NCBI GenBank assembly: GCA_964361655.1
Contig: CAYIBD010000002.1
Location: 1 to 36,229 of the forward strand
Direction: 5' to 3'
Length of the DNA: 36,229 bases
Source: an uncultured Candidatus Saccharibacteria bacterium
GTDB lineage: Bacteria; Patescibacteriota; Minisyncoccia; Sungbacterales; SURF-37
The position numbers and the translations under genes are program-made. The notes below the pieces were generated by a model. The model ran no database searches. It had not been told where the DNA came from and saw nothing but the letters and a program-made list of their open reading frames with translations. Shown in pieces: positions 16,947-26,030 of the stretch (within the stretch, counting starts at the first letter, position 1; each line of letters opens with the position of its first letter).

Positions 16947-19499
16947 CTACGGCACGGCCACGATGCTCCGCCCGATGTTCCCGACCGCATCGTAGGCCCG
17001 GACTTCGAATGCGCCACTGGCGAGCTGGATTTCGTCGGCCGAGAGCAGAAAGGTTATCGGCATAATCGGTTGGGGGCGCGAAGCAATGATTTCATCTTGC
17101 GATAGGAGCGTTACCTCCTTGAGGGCATAGGGGGCCTCGGCGGTGATCTCGAGTAGCACGCCACCCTGGGATGAGTGGCTTTTTTTCACGGTGAGCCGCG
17201 GGAGTTTCTCGGGCGTGTGGACGTCATCATCGGCAATCGGCGCGGCTTCCCGAGGGGCGGGGCGAAAGCCAGAGAGCGTCCTCCACCGCTGGAAGGCCGT
17301 TTCCCAATTTTCGAATTGCGGGTCCGCTGACGGATTGGCCGGAGGCGGCCCGGCGGGATCATTGCGATCGATCCAGTAAAGGGAGTCGTGGGGCTCTCCA
17401 AAAGCCACGTCTTTCCGGGTCTCCGGTGGCGTGAGGTCTGTGGCACGTTTTTGGGAGATGGTATCAATGGTGATAACCAGGTCGCCCTGCCAAATGCCTT
17501 TCAAGACGGGCTTGGCCGCTTCCGGCGGGAGCGGCGGCGCCGGGAGTTCCTCGAGCGGCAGGCGTTGGAAGGCGAACTCCATGAAGGCGTGCCAGGCCGG
17601 AGCCGCCGCCATGACACCCGACCCCTTTTGTTGCACGGGCGTGTTGTCGTTGTTTCCCGCCCAGACCCCGACGACAATCGATGGGGTGTAGCCAATGGTC
17701 CAGGCGTCACGGTAGTTCTGGGTGGTTCCGGTTTTGGCTGCGACGCGCCGGCCCTCAAAGTAGAGGGACGAGCGGGGCTGGAAAACGGGAACGCGCGCGT
17801 CGTTGTCCGAAAGGATGTCGTTGATGAGGCGCGCGATATCACCGTCAAGGACGGGGCGGGGAGCGTCACGCCGCTCCTCGAGAATCCGACCGTCAGCTGC
17901 GCTAATGGAGTGGATACCGGTAGGCGGGCTCAAGACACCATCGTTGGCAAAGGCGCCGTAGGCGCTCACCATCTCGAGGAGCCGCACCTCCGCACCCCCC
18001 AGGACGAGCGAGAGGCCGTAGCGGCTGCGGTCGGTGAGCGATGTGATGCCGAGCTCCTCTGCGGTACGGATTGAATCCTCTACACCAGCGAGGTAGAGGA
18101 GCTTCACCGAGGGGACGTTCAACGATTGTGCCAGGGCCTGGCGGACGGTAACCGGACCCCGGAAGCGTTCATCGTAGTTCTGGGGGTGGTAGCAGTCCGC
18201 CTGGCGCGCCCCGCTCGCCGGTCGCGGGGCGCCCTCGGCGGTACAGCGGGGGTTGAATTCCGTTGGCACATCGAAGAGGACCGTTTCGGGCGTGATGCCC
18301 TTACGGAAGGCCGTGGCATAGACGAATGGTTTGAACGCTGAACCGGGCTGGCGGAGGGCCGTGGCAACATTGAAGTTGCCGTCGCGCTCCACATCGAAGT
18401 AGTCCCGCGAGCCGACCATGGCGAGAATCTCTCCGGTCTTGGGGTTGACGGCCGTGAGCGCCATGTTGGTTGCCTTGATGAGCTTCTCGTTCCGTTCGGC
18501 GAACTCGCGGACGATTCGCTCTGCGGCCTCTTGGAGGGTCCAATCGAGGGTGGTGGTAACCACCAGGCCACCCTCTTGAACCTCTTCTTCTCCATAGCGT
18601 TCGCGGAGGTAGTCGCGGATGAACATGACGAAGTGCGGGGCGCGGATGTTCTTGGTCGCCGGCAGGAATTTCAAGGCCTCGCCCGTGGCCCGTCGGACGT
18701 CGTCCGAGGAGAGGTACCCGAGCTCCCCCATTCGAGCCAGGATATGGTCTTTGCGCCGGAGGAGCTCGTCCTTATGCTGGCCGTAGGGGGAGAAATAGGA
18801 AGGTGCGGCGGGAAGGGCCGCCAGGAGCGCTGATTCGGCCGTGGTGAGCTCGCGGGCGCGCTTCCCAAAAAATGTCTCGGCCGCGGCCTCGATGCCGTAG
18901 GCGTTTTGCCCGTAGGGGATTTGGTTCAGGTAGAGGTCGAGGATGCGCTCTTTCTCGAGCTTGGCTTCGAGCACGATCGCGAGGAGGGCTTCACGGAGTT
19001 TCCGACGGAAGGTCCGCTCGTGGCCGAGGAGCGAATTTTTCACGAGCTGCTGCGTGATCGTGGATCCGCCCTGGCGAAGGTCGCGGGCCGCAATGTCCTT
19101 GAGGAGCGCCCGCACTATCCCCCGAAGGTCAATACCGGGGTGCTGGTAGAAGTTCGCATCCTCAATGGCGATCGTTGCATTCTTTACCGCGTCAGGAATT
19201 TCCGTAAAGGGGATGACGGTGCGCCGTTCCTCGCCGTGGATTTCATAGAGGAGGACGGCGCCGCTGCGGTCGTAGATTTTCGTTGACTGCACGATGCGCC
19301 GCGAAAAGAGCTCCTCGGGCGCGGGGAGGGTGCGGAGAACGAGTAGCGTTGCTGCGCCAGCGGCGGCTACGCCGAGGGCGAGTGCTACAACGAGGAGCCG
19401 GATCAACCAGCGCCGCGCCCCTGAAGCTCCGCGTTGACGGTTGCGAAGGCGTCGCATTGCGTACGGCAGTATAGCACGGGTCTCGCGGAGTTGGAACAC
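16947..19499 (-). CDS. Class A penicillin-binding protein (glycosyltransferase GT51 + transpeptidase) with a C-terminal extension
   Basis: GT51 motifs are EDANFYQHPGID and GGSTITQQLVKN. Transpeptidase motifs are SAFKP (SxxK), SLN (SxN) and KTGT. There is one N-terminal TM helix and a ~200-aa C-terminal extra domain. An alternative start is the ATG at 19457 (MRRLRNRQ). Confidence 0.9.
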   Translation of the reverse strand: MFQLRETRAILPYAMRRLRNRQRGASGARRWLIRLLVVALALGVAAAGAATLLVLRTLPAPEELFSRRIVQSTKIYDRSGAVLLYEIHGEERRTVIPFTEIPDAVKNATIAIEDANFYQHPGIDLRGIVRALLKDIAARDLRQGGSTITQQLVKNSLLGHERTFRRKLREALLAIVLEAKLEKERILDLYLNQIPYGQNAYGIEAAAETFFGKRARELTTAESALLAALPAAPSYFSPYGQHKDELLRRKDHILARMGELGYLSSDDVRRATGEALKFLPATKNIRAPHFVMFIRDYLRERYGEEEVQEGGLVVTTTLDWTLQEAAERIVREFAERNEKLIKATNMALTAVNPKTGEILAMVGSRDYFDVERDGNFNVATALRQPGSAFKPFVYATAFRKGITPETVLFDVPTEFNPRCTAEGAPRPASGARQADCYHPQNYDERFRGPVTVRQALAQSLNVPSVKLLYLAGVEDSIRTAEELGITSLTDRSRYGLSLVLGGAEVRLLEMVSAYGAFANDGVLSPPTGIHSISAADGRILEERRDAPRPVLDGDIARLINDILSDNDARVPVFQPRSSLYFEGRRVAAKTGTTQNYRDAWTIGYTPSIVVGVWAGNNDNTPVQQKGSGVMAAAPAWHAFMEFAFQRLPLEELPAPPLPPEAAKPVLKGIWQGDLVITIDTISQKRATDLTPPETRKDVAFGEPHDSLYWIDRNDPAGPPPANPSADPQFENWETAFQRWRTLSGFRPAPREAAPIADDDVHTPEKLPRLTVKKSHSSQGGVLLEITAEAPYALKEVTLLSQDEIIASRPQPIMPITFLLSADEIQLASGAFEVRAYDAVGNIGRSIVAVP

Positions 19500-19527
19500 G
19501 ACTGGCTTTGTGGTATCGTCTCACCGT

Positions 19528-20724
19528 ATGCCGCCGCGCCGCCATGATTTTTTCACGTTTCTCGCCTCACGGAGTGCTGAGGTCATCGACCCATCGAGTT
19601 TGAAGCGGAAGCTTGTAACACGGCGAAAGCTCCGCGTCAAGCTCGGTATTGATCCGACGGCGCCGGATTTACACCTCGGTCATCTGGTTCCCCTCCGCAT
19701 GCTCCGCGCCTTTCAGGATGCCGGGCATCAGGCGGTGCTCATCATCGGCGATTTTACGGGCCAAATCGGTGATCCGTCGGAGCAAAGCTCCGCACGCCGT
19801 CAGCTGAGTGCCGCGGCGGTTAAGGCCAACGAGCGGACGTACTTGGGTCAGGCCGGCCGGATTTTGAATCTCAAGCGGACCGAGGTGCGCCACAACAGCC
19901 AGTGGTTCGGGCGGATGCGCCTGTCGGAGTTCCTCGGTCTCCTGGCGCGGTTCTCTCTCAAGAGCGCTTCGGAGCGAGCCGACTTCCAGAAGCGAATCCG
20001 TACCGGACGGGACGTACGCCTCCACGAAGCAACCTACCACGTCCTCCAGGCCTACGATTCGGTTGCTGTTCGGGCTGATGTGGAGATCGGATCGCTCGAT
20101 CAAAAGCTGAATATTCTTGCTGGGCGAGAGCTGCAGGCCAAGCTCGGCCAGGCGCCGCAAAGTGTTGTCCTGGTGCCCTACCTCATTGGGCTTGACGGGA
20201 AGGCAAAAATGGCAAAGTCCGTGGGTAATACCATCAACCTCCGCGACTCGGCCAAAGACATGTTCGGCAAGGTGATGTCAATCCCCGACGCACTCATTAT
20301 CAACTACGCTGAACTCGCGGCGTGGCTCCCATCCGGAGAGGTCCGCGGCATCACCCGCCGCCTTGAGCGCGGCGAGAACCCCCGCGATCTCAAGCTCGAA
20401 GTCGCGACCGCAGTCACGGCACTCTACCATGGGCACAAAGCCGCGCGACGGGTAGGAGATGAATTTTTACGGACGTTCGGGCGGAGCGCGTTTCCGGCTC
20501 GAGCGCCGCTCCGCCGGGTGGCCTCTGGGCTCCGGCCGGTTGATTTTGTCATGGCGCTCAAGGGAACCTCTTCTCACGGCGAGGCCCGCCGCCTGATCGC
20601 CGGGGGTGCGGTCGAGGTTGATGGCCGTAGGCTCACCCTCCGCGAGCCAGGCGTCACCCTCCGGCCGGGCAGTCGGGTTCGCGTCGGTAAAAAGCAGTTC
20701 TATCGGATTCGCCAGGAAAGATAA
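19528..20724 (+). CDS. tyrS: Tyrosine--tRNA ligase
   Basis: The HIGH motif is present as HLGH and KMSKS as KMAKS. There is a C-terminal S4-like domain (ARRLIAGGAVEVDGRR). I trimmed the start to the ATG at 19528 (MPPRRHDFF...), because the listed 19441 start would overlap the divergent PBP gene. Confidence 0.92.
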   Translation: MPPRRHDFFTFLASRSAEVIDPSSLKRKLVTRRKLRVKLGIDPTAPDLHLGHLVPLRMLRAFQDAGHQAVLIIGDFTGQIGDPSEQSSARRQLSAAAVKANERTYLGQAGRILNLKRTEVRHNSQWFGRMRLSEFLGLLARFSLKSASERADFQKRIRTGRDVRLHEATYHVLQAYDSVAVRADVEIGSLDQKLNILAGRELQAKLGQAPQSVVLVPYLIGLDGKAKMAKSVGNTINLRDSAKDMFGKVMSIPDALIINYAELAAWLPSGEVRGITRRLERGENPRDLKLEVATAVTALYHGHKAARRVGDEFLRTFGRSAFPARAPLRRVASGLRPVDFVMALKGTSSHGEARRLIAGGAVEVDGRRLTLREPGVTLRPGSRVRVGKKQFYRIRQER

Positions 20725-22908: not shown

Positions 22909-23934
22909 TTACGTGAGGAGCCGCGGCTGCTCGGGGAACTCCAGGCCGAGGTGTTGCCAGGCCAGGCGCGTTGCCACCCGTCCCCGAGCGGTGCGTTCGA
23001 TCAGGCCGAGCTGCATGAGGAAGGGTTCGTAGACCTCCTCAATGGTATCTTCCTCTTCGGCGGTGGCCGCGGCAATGGCGGTAAGGCCGACCGGCCCGCC
23101 TTGGAACTTTTGAATGATGGTCTCGAGGATGCGTCGGTCAGTCGGCTCGAGGCCGAGGTGGTCAACCTCGAGCCGCGCCAGGGCGGCGTGGGCCGCGGCG
23201 GCCGTGACGCGGCCGCTGCCGTGGACGTCGGCGTAGTCGCGCACACGCTTTAAGAGGCGGTTTGCAATCCGGGGGGTGGAGCGCGACGAGGCGGCGATCG
23301 CGGTGATGGCTTCGGGGTCGGCGTGAACGTTGAGGATCCGGCAGGAGCGCTCCAGGATGCGTTCAATATCCCGCGGAGCGTAGAAGTCGAGCCGAAAGGT
23401 GACGCCGAAGCGCGAGCGGAGGGGCCCGGAGAGCATGCCAATCCGCGTCGTCGCCGCAATGATGGTGAAGGGCGGGAGTTCGAGCTGGATGGTTCGTGCC
23501 GAGGGGCCTTTCCCGATGATGATGTCAAGCGTCCTCGATTCCATCGCCGGGTAGAGAACCTCTTCGATGAGCTTATTCATGCGGTGGGCCTCGTCAATGA
23601 AGAGGATATCGCCCGGCATGAGGTTGGTCAGGATGGAGGCCAGATCGCCGACCCGTTCGATAGCCGGTCCGGAGGTCACGCGGATCGAAGTGCTCACCTC
23701 GCGGGCGATCAGGTGCGCGAGGGAAGTTTTCCCGAGTCCCGGCGGACCGTAGATGAGAACGTGCTCGATCGCTTCGTTTCGTTTCTTGGCCGCCGTGATG
23801 AGGATTTTCAAGTTATCTTTCACGGATTCTTGCCCAATGAAATCGTCCCACCGCTGGGGTCGGAGGGTTTGATCCAGGACAACGTCGTCAGGTTTTTGTT
23901 TTGGCTCGGCCGGCATCAGTGAGCGGCGCCACAC
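22909..23934 (-). CDS. ruvB: Holliday junction branch migration ATPase RuvB
   Basis: [12 protein letters not shown] and Walker [10 protein letters not shown] are present, together with LFIDEAHR, the sensor region and the winged-helix C-terminus. An alternative start is 23916. Confidence 0.95.
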
Positions 23935-23941
23935 CCGCCCA

Positions 23942-23970
23942 TTGACAGGTGGGCATGGTTTTGATATAAT
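23942..23970 (+). promoter_or_regulatory. Consensus sigma70-type promoter pointing into a gene-free region
   Basis: TTGACA (23942..23947), an exact 17-nt spacer, then TATAAT (23965..23970). This is a perfect match to both hexamers with optimal spacing. No credible plus-strand CDS follows before 27379. Confidence 0.6.
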
Positions 23971-23976
23971 TCTTGG

Positions 23977-24297
23977 CAGGAGCGTGAGGAGGGCGGGTAG
24001 CCCTTTTTCGTATTCTCGCCGTCGCCTCCTCGGGCTGTGGGCAATTCAGGTTGGCGGGCTCGCCTTCCTGAATGGGGGTTTTTATATGTTCGGCGTCCCG
24101 GTTCCCGCCTTGTCGCGGATCGGACTCGGACGCTCGGCTTCAAAACCCTGACCTCCGCGTTCCCAAACCGGAGTATTGCCCACAGCCCGAGGTGGTGATC
24201 GCTCGACCCCCGGCATTTTTCTCCACGCCTCTATTCTTGAGAAAATCGCTTCGCGATCGTGCACGGGCGGCTCTTTTTCATCACAGGCCCGTGTTTT
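23977..24297 (+). ncRNA. Candidate structured non-coding RNA of unknown class (rod-like core at about 24014..24206)
   Basis: It lies downstream of the consensus promoter. An 18-nt perfect inverted repeat, CCTCGGGCTGTGGGCAAT (24028..24045) and ATTGCCCACAGCCCGAGG (24175..24192), encloses 129 nt. The helix extends outward by about 9 more pairs, including two G-T pairs (24024/24196 and 24021/24199) that would be C-A mismatches on the minus strand. It also extends inward (GGTTGG 24049..24054 with CCAAACC 24063..24069... i.e. 24163..24169). I saw no RNase P, SRP or tmRNA signature sequences. Confidence 0.4.
24262..24297 (+). terminator. Possible intrinsic terminator of the candidate ncRNA
   Basis: CACGGGC (24262..24268) pairs with GCCCGTG (24287..24293) and is followed by TTTTAAATTT. 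The 18-nt loop is large, so support is only moderate. Confidence 0.3.
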
Positions 24298-24365
24298 AAA
24301 TTTCGATCATTGGGGTCTATTTAGGGTTTAGAAATTAGGATTTAGGGCTTCACCACGCCGGAAGT

Positions 24366-26030
24366 TCATCCAGCCCCAACCACGCGTTCTACTTCGGCTA
24401 AATCAGTTATCCCGGCCAAAACTTTCAGGATCCCATCCTGCCGCATGGTGATCTGGCCCTGCTCCTTGGCCGCCTGTTTCAAATCTACCTCGGAGGGCTT
24501 CCGGAACACCAGCGGTTCGACCACGTCGTCGACGAGGATGATCTCAAAGACGCCGATGCGACCTTTGTAGCCAGTGGCGTGGCACTCCACGCAGCTGGCC
24601 GCCTTGGCGAGGTGAGGGGGATTTTTTACTTGTGGCCGCGGCACGTCTTTGGGCAAGGAGTCGAGCTCTCTTTGGATGGCGTCAATTTCTGCCGCGGCGG
24701 GTTGATACGGTTGCTTACACTTCTCACAAAGCCGCCTGACGAGGCGCTGCGCCATGGAAATGTTGATGGCCGGCGCCATGATAGCCGGCTCAACGCCGAG
24801 GTCGAGGAGCCGCGGAATGGTGCCCGCGGCGTTATTGGTATGGAGGGTGGAGAAAACGAGGTGCCCGGTGAGGGCGGCGTGCATGGCGGTTTGGGCCGTC
24901 TCGAGATCCCGGATCTCGCCGACAAGGATGACATCCGGGTCCTGGCGCATGATCGAGCGGAGCCCGTTCGCAAAATCGTAGCCCGACTCCGGCTCGACCT
25001 GGGTCTGCTCAATGCCGGTGATGTGGTACTCGATGGGGTCCTCGAGCGTAATGATCTTTACGCCGGGCTGGTGGACCTCGCGGATGAAGGCGTAGAGGGT
25101 CGTGGTTTTGCCTGAACCGGTGGGGCCGGTGGTGAGGATCATGCCGTTCGGTTTTGCAAGCTCCCGCGCCATCGCCGCTTGGGTCCAGGGCTGCATGCCG
25201 AGGTCGGTAAACCCAACCGAGATGGCCTTGGGGTTCAATACGCGTAGCACAATGTTCTCGCCGTAGGGGCCGGGCAGGGTTGAGGCCCGGACCTCAATGT
25301 CTAGACCTTCCTCCCGGATGGTGAACCGTCCGTCCTGGCCGCGGGTGTGGATGTTCAGTTTCATCTCGGAGATGAGCTTGATCCGCGAGAGGAGGAACTT
25401 GTAGCGATCCACCGGGATGGTGGCGGCATCTTGCAGCACCCCGTCGAGGCGGAAGCGGAGCCGGATGCGGTCCGGCTGTGGCTCGAGGTGAATGTCGGAG
25501 GCATCGGTTTCGAGGGCGCCGGCAATGATGATCTCGAGGATGTCGGTGGTACGTTTGGCCTCGACGCCTTCGAGGAGTTTGGCAATGTCAGTGACGGCTT
25601 TCGTCTGGGAGCGGAAGCTCTGGAGGCGCTCGAGCGAGATTTCCACTTCACCGGTGATGGCCCGGCGGCGGCGGGCGATGTGAGCGTAGGATTCCCAGGC
25701 CCGTTCCAAGCTCGATACCGAGGCGAGGAAGAGGTCCCAGGTGTAGCGGAGCCCGCGGAGCCGTTCGAGAACTTCTTTCGTGCGCGGGTTCTCCGGGTTA
25801 TGTACGGCTATTTCAAGTTTCTTGCCAATTTTCTGGATCACCGCCAGTTCAGACGCCCGCGCATCGGCTTCGGGTACGAGCGCCAAGGCCTCGACGTTTA
25901 CCGGCGCGGTGGATAAGTCGGCGTACGGAACGTTATACTTCCCCGACAGGATCTTTACCGTGTCTTCCTCCTCCTTCCGCAGCAGGCGCGATAGCTTACG
26001 CTGTTGTCGGCTTTCCTCAAAAGTGACCAC
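24366..26030 (-). CDS. GspE/PilB-family secretion/type IV pilus assembly ATPase
   Basis: 554 aa with an N-terminal GSPII_E_N-like domain (YNVPYADLSTAPVNVEALALVPEADA). Walker A is GPTGSGKTTT. The Asp box and Walker B region is ILVGEIRD and the His box is TGHLVFSTLHTN. A tetracysteine motif is present (CEKCKQ...CVECHATGYKGR). Confidence 0.9.
   Translation of the reverse strand: MVTFEESRQQRKLSRLLRKEEEDTVKILSGKYNVPYADLSTAPVNVEALALVPEADARASELAVIQKIGKKLEIAVHNPENPRTKEVLERLRGLRYTWDLFLASVSSLERAWESYAHIARRRRAITGEVEISLERLQSFRSQTKAVTDIAKLLEGVEAKRTTDILEIIIAGALETDASDIHLEPQPDRIRLRFRLDGVLQDAATIPVDRYKFLLSRIKLISEMKLNIHTRGQDGRFTIREEGLDIEVRASTLPGPYGENIVLRVLNPKAISVGFTDLGMQPWTQAAMARELAKPNGMILTTGPTGSGKTTTLYAFIREVHQPGVKIITLEDPIEYHITGIEQTQVEPESGYDFANGLRSIMRQDPDVILVGEIRDLETAQTAMHAALTGHLVFSTLHTNNAAGTIPRLLDLGVEPAIMAPAINISMAQRLVRRLCEKCKQPYQPAAAEIDAIQRELDSLPKDVPRPQVKNPPHLAKAASCVECHATGYKGRIGVFEIILVDDVVEPLVFRKPSEVDLKQAAKEQGQITMRQDGILKVLAGITDLAEVERVVGAG

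Follow-up and report, generated by a model that had tools for sequence, protein, structure and literature searches.

Locus organization and promoter

The window, that is, the whole stretch of 36,229 nt analysed here, carries ruvB and a pilB-like gene on the minus strand, and the spacer between the two (431 nt, 23935-24365) almost certainly contains a gene for a structured non-coding RNA of an undescribed family, which is encoded on the plus strand. The features of the locus are as follows:

22909-23934, minus strand: ruvB, with the domains RuvB_N, AAA lid and RuvB_C
23942-23970, plus strand: sigma-70 consensus promoter, 12/12 match, the sole such site in the window
23987-24007, plus strand: 5' leader hairpin AGGAGGGC-GGGUA-GCCCUUUU, recognized from its sequence and its recurrence in homologues
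24017-24203, plus strand: conserved RNA core, a four-way junction closed by P1, delimited by model R1 scores and covariation
24019-24045, plus strand: 5' strand of P1, pairing with 24175-24201 over about 25 bp, among them the 18 bp of the perfect repeat
24044-24073, plus strand: P2 hairpin AUUCAGG...CCUGAAU with a variable loop, 7/8 pairs compensatory
24075-24149, plus strand: P3 arm, with 6/8 and 9/13 compensatory pairs in helices 3 and 4, respectively
24153-24173, plus strand: P4 hairpin CUCCG-C-GUU-CCCA-AAC-CGGAG, 8/8 pairs compensatory class-wide
24175-24201, plus strand: 3' strand of P1, supported by fold, alignment and covariation
24204-24300, plus strand: lineage-specific 3' tail, about 100 nt, unconserved and outside the covariance models
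24366-26030, minus strand: pilB-like gene for a PilB/GspE-type ATPase (T2SSE domain), converging on the RNA gene

The initial annotation had described a gene-free spacer of about 430 nt preceded by the best promoter match in the window, and both descriptions hold: the ORFs of the spacer show neither conservation nor Pfam matches, and the whole-window promoter scan recovered no other site with fewer than two mismatches. The promoter consists of a TTGACA -35 box (23942-23947), a 17-nt spacer with TG preceding the -10 box, and a TATAAT -10 box (23965-23970), so that transcription would be expected to start near position 23977. Perfect 12/12 promoters are found 11 times in the 668-kb genome, the promoter of the RNA gene included, and another drives the RNase P RNA gene of the same genome.

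Depending on whether ruvB starts with the GTG at 23934 or with the in-frame ATG at 23916, its start codon is separated by 8-26 nt from the -35 box of the RNA gene, and the single promoter-like site on the minus strand of the spacer is weak (8/12, 24243-24215), which implies that the ruvB mRNA must traverse the RNA gene in antisense orientation. Transcription of ruvB through the RNA gene thus probably originates from the pilB-like operon. In distant members of the class, the gene order is DHH-like, pilB-like, RNA (on the opposite strand), ruvB, bPH and yebC. The position of the RNA between the pilB-like gene and ruvB is retained in nine of ten distant genomes; in the tenth region, ruvB was not found within 7 kb of the RNA. 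Given that the whole gene block is syntenic, the identity of the neighbours of the RNA is weak evidence for its function.

In three relatives (loci L009, L011 and L013 of genomes G002, G003 and G006), the RNA is followed by a plus-strand gene for a small membrane protein instead of pilB. In two of these loci, the stretch GTAAACCGTTCGGATGCCGA(A/G)C...GCTCGG is located about 60-120 nt past the RNA and before the Shine-Dalgarno sequence, and the third carries its first part only; this stretch may represent a separate leader element. In the window itself, a degenerate array of TTTAGGG-like heptamers is found just after the stop codon of the pilB-like gene (24310-24352), and the genome contains six comparable copies at other sites. 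A lenient tandem-repeat scan returned 237 period-7 arrays genome-wide, often arranged as inverted pairs (e.g., TACGAAT xN ... ATTCGTA xN), and heptamer arrays are present downstream of the RNA in relatives as well.

A four-way junction supported by covariation

The initial annotation drew attention to an inverted repeat in the spacer, and its arms (24028-24045 and 24175-24192) are indeed perfect complements over 18 bp. The helix extends outward, as had been proposed, reaching 24 nt at 92% complementarity (24022-24045/24175-24198), and corresponds to the closing stem P1. Two pairs of the extension are G-U and would read C-A in a minus-strand RNA, in agreement with the earlier reading of these positions as pairs that work only in a plus-strand RNA. 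The plus-strand fold of the spacer has an energy of -151.3 kcal/mol (z = -5.1), but the minus strand folds nearly as well, so that energy alone cannot assign the strand. Assignment to the plus strand is instead based on the conserved G-U pairs, namely, the closing pair of P3, which is G-U in 39 of 43 sequences, and a tandem U-G/G-U in P3b, along with the scores of covariance model R1 on the core, which amount to 177.2 bits on the plus strand versus 42.9 bits on the minus strand.

The conserved core is 187 nt long (about 185 nt of conserved product) and comprises five helices in the consensus of 16 sequences, with linkers of 0-3 unpaired bases each at the junction. Of the four arms, P1 and P3 are long and are placed on opposite sides of the junction, whereas the short arms P2 and P4 are approximately 8 bp each. 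The junction-proximal pairs at 24044-24045 may join either P1 or P2. In P3, the base helix is formed by 24075-24082 and 24142-24149, followed by P3a/b, in which 24090-24102 pairs with 24124-24137 and which contains the conserved tandem G-U (CUGG/CUGG type). The P3 apex (24104-24119) is variable; here it forms a small hairpin, and in relatives it accommodates insertions of up to about 100 nt. The sequence of P4 is nearly invariant in the order of the host, and its CCCA loop is common, albeit not universal, in the class. The conserved nucleotides are located in the helices adjoining the junction. Among the inner helices suggested earlier, GGGTTTT/AAAACCC (P3) and CGGCGTCC/GGACGC-T-CG (P3a) are borne out by covariation, whereas GGTTGG/CCAAACC is not, its bases belonging to two local hairpins, P2 and P4, both of which covary.

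Conservation and covariation among related genomes had been put forward as a decisive test of the RNA, and strong covariation is found across about 100 genomes. In a plain MAFFT alignment of 16 sequences, 33 of the 62 pairs are compensatory. Larger alignments of 43 sequences (fitted to model R1) and 99 sequences were model-fitted and therefore favour the model. With this proviso, in the 43-sequence alignment both sides have changed in 54 of the 62 pairs, including 24 of the 25 pairs of P1, and 93.3% of the cells are paired. The covariation score of this alignment is 0.644 compared to 0.234 in shuffles, none of 500 shuffles reaches 0.644, and sliding the pair partners reduces the score to 0.11-0.17. 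In the 99-sequence alignment, each of the 23 pairs with the highest mutual information belongs to the model; the same analysis yielded no convincing pseudoknot or tertiary pairs beyond the secondary structure, and no conserved single-stranded seed was found among the 99 sequences.

Distribution of the RNA

BLAST searches identified the region in all 11 genomes of the same family and in some of the other genomes of the order, and the 3' half of the element (24142-24192) is up to 96% identical among these homologues. Model R1 detects one copy in 60 of the 62 genomes of the order and recovers the RNA in 60 of the 151 sampled genomes of the class, the ultra-small Paceibacteria (Parcubacteria), whereas the broader, trimmed model R2 finds one copy in 127 of these 151 genomes and in 121 of the 142 high-quality ones; the E-values of both models are rough and the sampled genomes are related, so that the counts are not independent. 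Two families that scored negative possess a diverged version, with the promoter, the closing stem and the U-run at the same site.

Outside the class, the search of the phylum sample with model R2 returned no homologues in other classes of Patescibacteria apart from one match that lies within a membrane-protein gene and hence is false. Twenty-nine ruvB loci of other classes have neither a pilB neighbour nor a perfect promoter. Named records carrying the P4 motif belong to Candidatus Sungbacteria (Sungiibacteriota) and to Parcubacteria-group metagenome-assembled genomes, and the exact P4 motif was not found in viral contigs. The genomes of the RNA-bearing class are small, 0.5-1.2 Mb, that of the host being 0.67 Mb. 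In one AT-rich genome from a family without the RNA (locus L188, G080:C1), the region upstream of ruvB contains a GC-rich, hairpin-rich stretch with the T-arm-like sequence GAGTTCAAGTC.

Transcript ends and transcription unit

A promoter is present within 170 nt upstream of the core in most homologues, with a perfect match in 41 of 99 and at most two mismatches in 88 of 99. The end of the -10 box precedes the start of the trimmed model by a median of 47 nt, that is, it lies roughly 34 nt before P1. In the 5' leader hairpin, a Shine-Dalgarno-like strand is paired with a U-rich strand. The same hairpin, AGGAGGG...CCCUCUUU, occurs directly 3' of the promoter in most homologues from the order of the host, and a strict scan recovers the leader hairpin in 20 of 93 homologues class-wide; we infer that it is an optional module that stabilises or protects the 5' end.

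At the 3' end, a run of at least four T starts no more than 45 nt past the end of the model in 60 of 99 homologues. The median distance is 9 nt, directly after P1, indicating that P1 acts as the terminator stem in many relatives. Hence, the transcription unit appears to consist of the promoter, an optional 5' hairpin, the core and a terminator made, in many relatives, of P1 and the U-run. In this window, P1 is not followed by a U-run, so that the primary transcript probably continues to about position 24297 and may be trimmed to P1. The terminator that had been proposed at this end, CACGGGC...GCCCGUG-UUUU (24262-24297), does exist as a hairpin in the fold, but it is rejected by the terminator scan because of its 18-nt loop and is not conserved, whereas the relatives end at P1 and the U-run. 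Likewise, the transcript length of about 320 nt suggested earlier is uncertain: about 185 nt belong to the conserved unit, the final 100 nt in this window being lineage-specific.

Within the 3' tail, the segment 24216-24257 (TTTTTCTCCACGCCTCTATTCTTGAGAAAATCGC) matches a dispersed element of relatives, which is present in six copies in one genome and in single copies in two others. In one relative, the RNA is immediately followed by a long inverted repeat that contains this element. The segment looks like a remnant of a small palindromic insertion.

Comparison with known RNA classes

A search of the whole window against Rfam 15 at gathering thresholds gave no match. With the region alone at E<=10, only noise was obtained (miRNA and snoRNA models), and no family recurred among 20 diverse homologous loci at E<=5. 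The covariance-model search that had been recommended for 6S RNA and all bacterial families was thus negative throughout, and we found no description of the RNA in the literature. Taken together with the single copy and the covariation, these results support the original proposal of a promoter-driven, ORF-free, structured plus-strand RNA of no recognized class.

Several housekeeping RNAs reside elsewhere in the genome or in relatives and were rejected on these grounds. The tmRNA gene is located at C33:5270-5695, and ARAGORN finds nothing in the window; RNase P RNA is encoded on contig C8 (about 19030-19721); and four complete relatives carry their 5S rRNA at other sites. The earlier statement that the spacer lacks signatures of RNase P, SRP or tmRNA is borne out, with no match to any of the respective models. 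The RNase P RNA itself (G000:C8:18991-19721) scores 57.8 bits, against a cut-off of 100 for the bacterial type A model, and has a perfect 12/12 promoter upstream and GGAAAGTCC about 50 nt downstream. It appears to be a divergent RNase P RNA that would escape standard annotation.

SRP RNA was rejected as well, the RF00169 and RF01854 models (helix 8/domain IV) showing no match at the region and the partner proteins Ffh and FtsY not being found. RF00169 was not detected in the genome or in any of 41 relatives, and RF01854 has one weak match in the genome, located elsewhere and not reproduced. On the protein side, SRP_SPB (the Ffh M domain) was found neither in the genome nor in the 41 relatives, an HMM search of the genome revealed no SRP54-type GTPase, and its six-frame translation contains no Ffh/FtsY-type GTPase with DTAGR or TKxDG signatures. 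In samples of 151 genomes each from the class and the phylum, the SRP54 GTPase family gave marginal P-loop matches only. The pattern is consistent with either the loss of Ffh, FtsY and 4.5S RNA in Patescibacteria or a failure of the first-look filter to recognize them; we found no literature statement that Patescibacteria lack the SRP pathway.

The resemblance to 6S RNA (ssrS; RF00013 and related models) is closer. Both RNAs are about 180-190 nt long with their ends paired in a long closing stem, and both are encoded by stand-alone genes with a strong sigma-70 promoter, present in one copy and conserved across a broad lineage. Accordingly, the size, closing stem and strong promoter of the 6S-like architecture noted in the initial annotation stand, but the centre does not fit: 6S RNA has a large open central bubble, in contrast to the covariation-supported four-way junction of the present RNA, which is paired, so that the latter is not a recognizable 6S RNA. 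Furthermore, the closing stem is almost perfect, and the 6S models do not match the region (E<=10) or the 20 homologues (E<=5). Neither the rest of the host genome nor five genomes of the class that are complete or nearly so gave an RF00013 match; however, this model missed 9 of 14 control genomes, and little weight can hence be given to the lack of a match in the rest of the host genome.

The RNA further resembles the raiA motif RNA, OLE, ROOL and GOLLD, orphan RNAs discovered through comparative genomics, in combining an ornate, covarying fold with restriction to one lineage and an intergenic location. However, it has no Rfam 15 match to any of these and is smaller than OLE, ROOL and GOLLD. 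Moreover, in contrast to these orphan RNAs, which are patchy or prophage-associated, it is a single-copy component of the core genome at a fixed position. With Y RNA/YrlA and other RNAs that dock proteins it shares a compact module of several helices carried on a long stem between the two ends, and its conserved paired nucleotides hint at recognition by a protein; unlike Y RNA, it carries no T-loop-like or Ro-binding motif, and no Rfam Y RNA model matches. On inspection, the loops of P4 and P3b do not fit the UUCRANY T-loop pattern.

Proposed function and alternative explanations

The reading that we consider somewhat better than an even bet is that of a stable trans-acting RNA that serves as a protein-binding scaffold or ribonucleoprotein component. 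According to this proposal, the strong consensus sigma-70 promoter would drive synthesis of a plus-strand RNA from near position 23977, and the core would fold such that the 25-bp P1 carries the hairpins P2 and P4 and the long arm P3, with its tandem G-U and variable tip. The near-invariant pairs around the junction could then offer a surface on which a protein partner docks, given that the conserved nucleotides lie within the helices adjoining the junction and that neither a seed nor pseudoknot covariation is detected. The RNA would act in a ribonucleoprotein with a housekeeping or regulatory role, much like 6S, Y and SRP RNAs, rather than by base-pairing with targets. A stable and abundant RNA is suggested by the consensus promoter, by the hairpin at the 5' end and by the long helix that joins the ends; high expression is likewise inferred, with the caveat that promoter scores do not prove abundance. 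The retention of one copy per genome in genomes of 0.5-1.2 Mb suggests housekeeping-like behaviour. Because the next gene converges, the RNA is not expected to act in cis on a downstream gene. It would nevertheless be antisense within the probable read-through from pilB to ruvB, and selection may maintain it in part for a cis or antisense effect.

Among the alternatives, a functional analogue of 6S RNA appears unlikely. Such an RNA would mimic a promoter and sequester sigma-70 RNA polymerase, with the AU-rich P2 and the junction melting into a bubble. The length of about 185 nt, the long closing stem at the ends and the consensus sigma-70 promoter fit this idea, as does the lack of a canonical 6S RNA in the searches of the host genome and the five complete or near-complete class genomes, which leaves the slot of a widespread housekeeping RNA unfilled. 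However, the insensitivity of RF00013 in control genomes weakens this argument from absence, no 6S-family signal is obtained even at the permissive thresholds used for the region and the 20 homologues, and P1 is near-perfect, without the bulges typical of 6S RNA. The tightly paired junction, with its 0-3 unpaired bases per linker, and the compensatory maintenance of P2 and P4 argue against a melting centre. A local role is quite unlikely: here, the strong convergent unit and its antisense RNA of 185 nt or more would insulate ruvB or trigger RNase III processing of the pilB-like read-through. The closeness of the ruvB start to the -35 box, the weak minus-strand promoter-like site and the retained position in distant genomes are in line with such a role, but this position belongs to a syntenic block and is not independent evidence. 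Moreover, a gene on the plus strand replaces pilB after the RNA in three relatives, one of the ten distant regions lacks ruvB within 7 kb, and neither an antisense RNA nor an insulator needs a compensatorily kept four-way junction or plus-strand G-U pairs.

We regard a ribozyme or ligand-sensing RNA acting alone as very unlikely. Tandem G-U pairs are a common metal-binding site, and the ornate conserved junction, the invariant nucleotides and the conserved tandem G-U are features that an RNA of this kind might have; nevertheless, no known ribozyme or riboswitch model matches, there is no downstream gene to control, and the analysis revealed neither a conserved internal loop nor a pseudoknot of the kind seen in active sites. 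Similarly, a riboswitch or cis-acting leader was rejected given that the pilB-like gene is on the opposite strand and that P1 and the U-run end the unit in many relatives. A connection with the adjacent ruvB can be imagined in which the RNA mimics a four-way DNA (Holliday) junction and docks the RuvAB branch-migration machinery, by analogy with 6S RNA, which mimics an open promoter. This idea is derived from the paired four-way junction with P1 and P3 opposite each other, the AAUU at the P1/P2 border, where two base pairs can migrate between helices, and the back-to-back arrangement of the promoter and ruvB across the class. Yet RuvA reads B-form DNA, and this, along with the synteny of the block, counts against the idea, which we deem highly improbable. 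The RNA was also rejected as a replacement for RuvA, a short RuvA-like ORF being present at C2:36063-36443. This 138-aa ORF, which extends beyond the end of the window, is the only RuvA-like sequence; its similarity to TIGR00084 is weak (E about 1e-3) and confined to the two termini, with the middle of RuvA apparently missing.

The perfect 18-bp inverted repeat and the 75-codon ORF might be taken to suggest an element that acts as DNA, such as a MITE, a REP or a palindrome bound by a protein, or else a gene for a small protein, but the likelihood of this explanation is negligible. Multiple copies of the repeat would have indicated a MITE or REP element, but neither arm has a second copy in the genome at up to three mismatches, BLAST of the spacer against the whole genome gave no second match to the core, and each relative genome has one copy. 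The element is orthologous and syntenic in more than 100 genomes and maintains strand-specific G-U pairs. As to a protein, the spacer ORFs (51-75 aa) have no Pfam match, and the longest one (24072-24299) is not conserved: in homologues, its frame stops after 11-76 codons, and one lacks the ATG.

Implications for Paceibacteria

Besides rRNA and tRNA, we know of only a handful of RNAs that are present in one copy throughout a lineage, namely, RNase P RNA, tmRNA, SRP RNA and 6S RNA. The host genome, similar in size (0.67 Mb) to most others of its class, devotes about 250 bp and a perfect promoter, of which it has few, to a fifth RNA of this kind, one that matches none of the other four. In the same genomes, our searches found no SRP RNA, Ffh, FtsY or recognizable 6S RNA. 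If the RNA were, after all, an analogue of 6S RNA, sequestration of the polymerase would be possible by a fold quite unlike that of the known 6S RNAs. Covariance models R1 and R2 would allow annotation of the gene in thousands of metagenome-assembled genomes. The Paceibacteria (Parcubacteria) make up a very large share of the candidate phyla radiation and are uncultured. Most of their biology has been deduced from protein genes, and a new ribonucleoprotein or regulatory RNA would provide a direct handle on the biology of these organisms.
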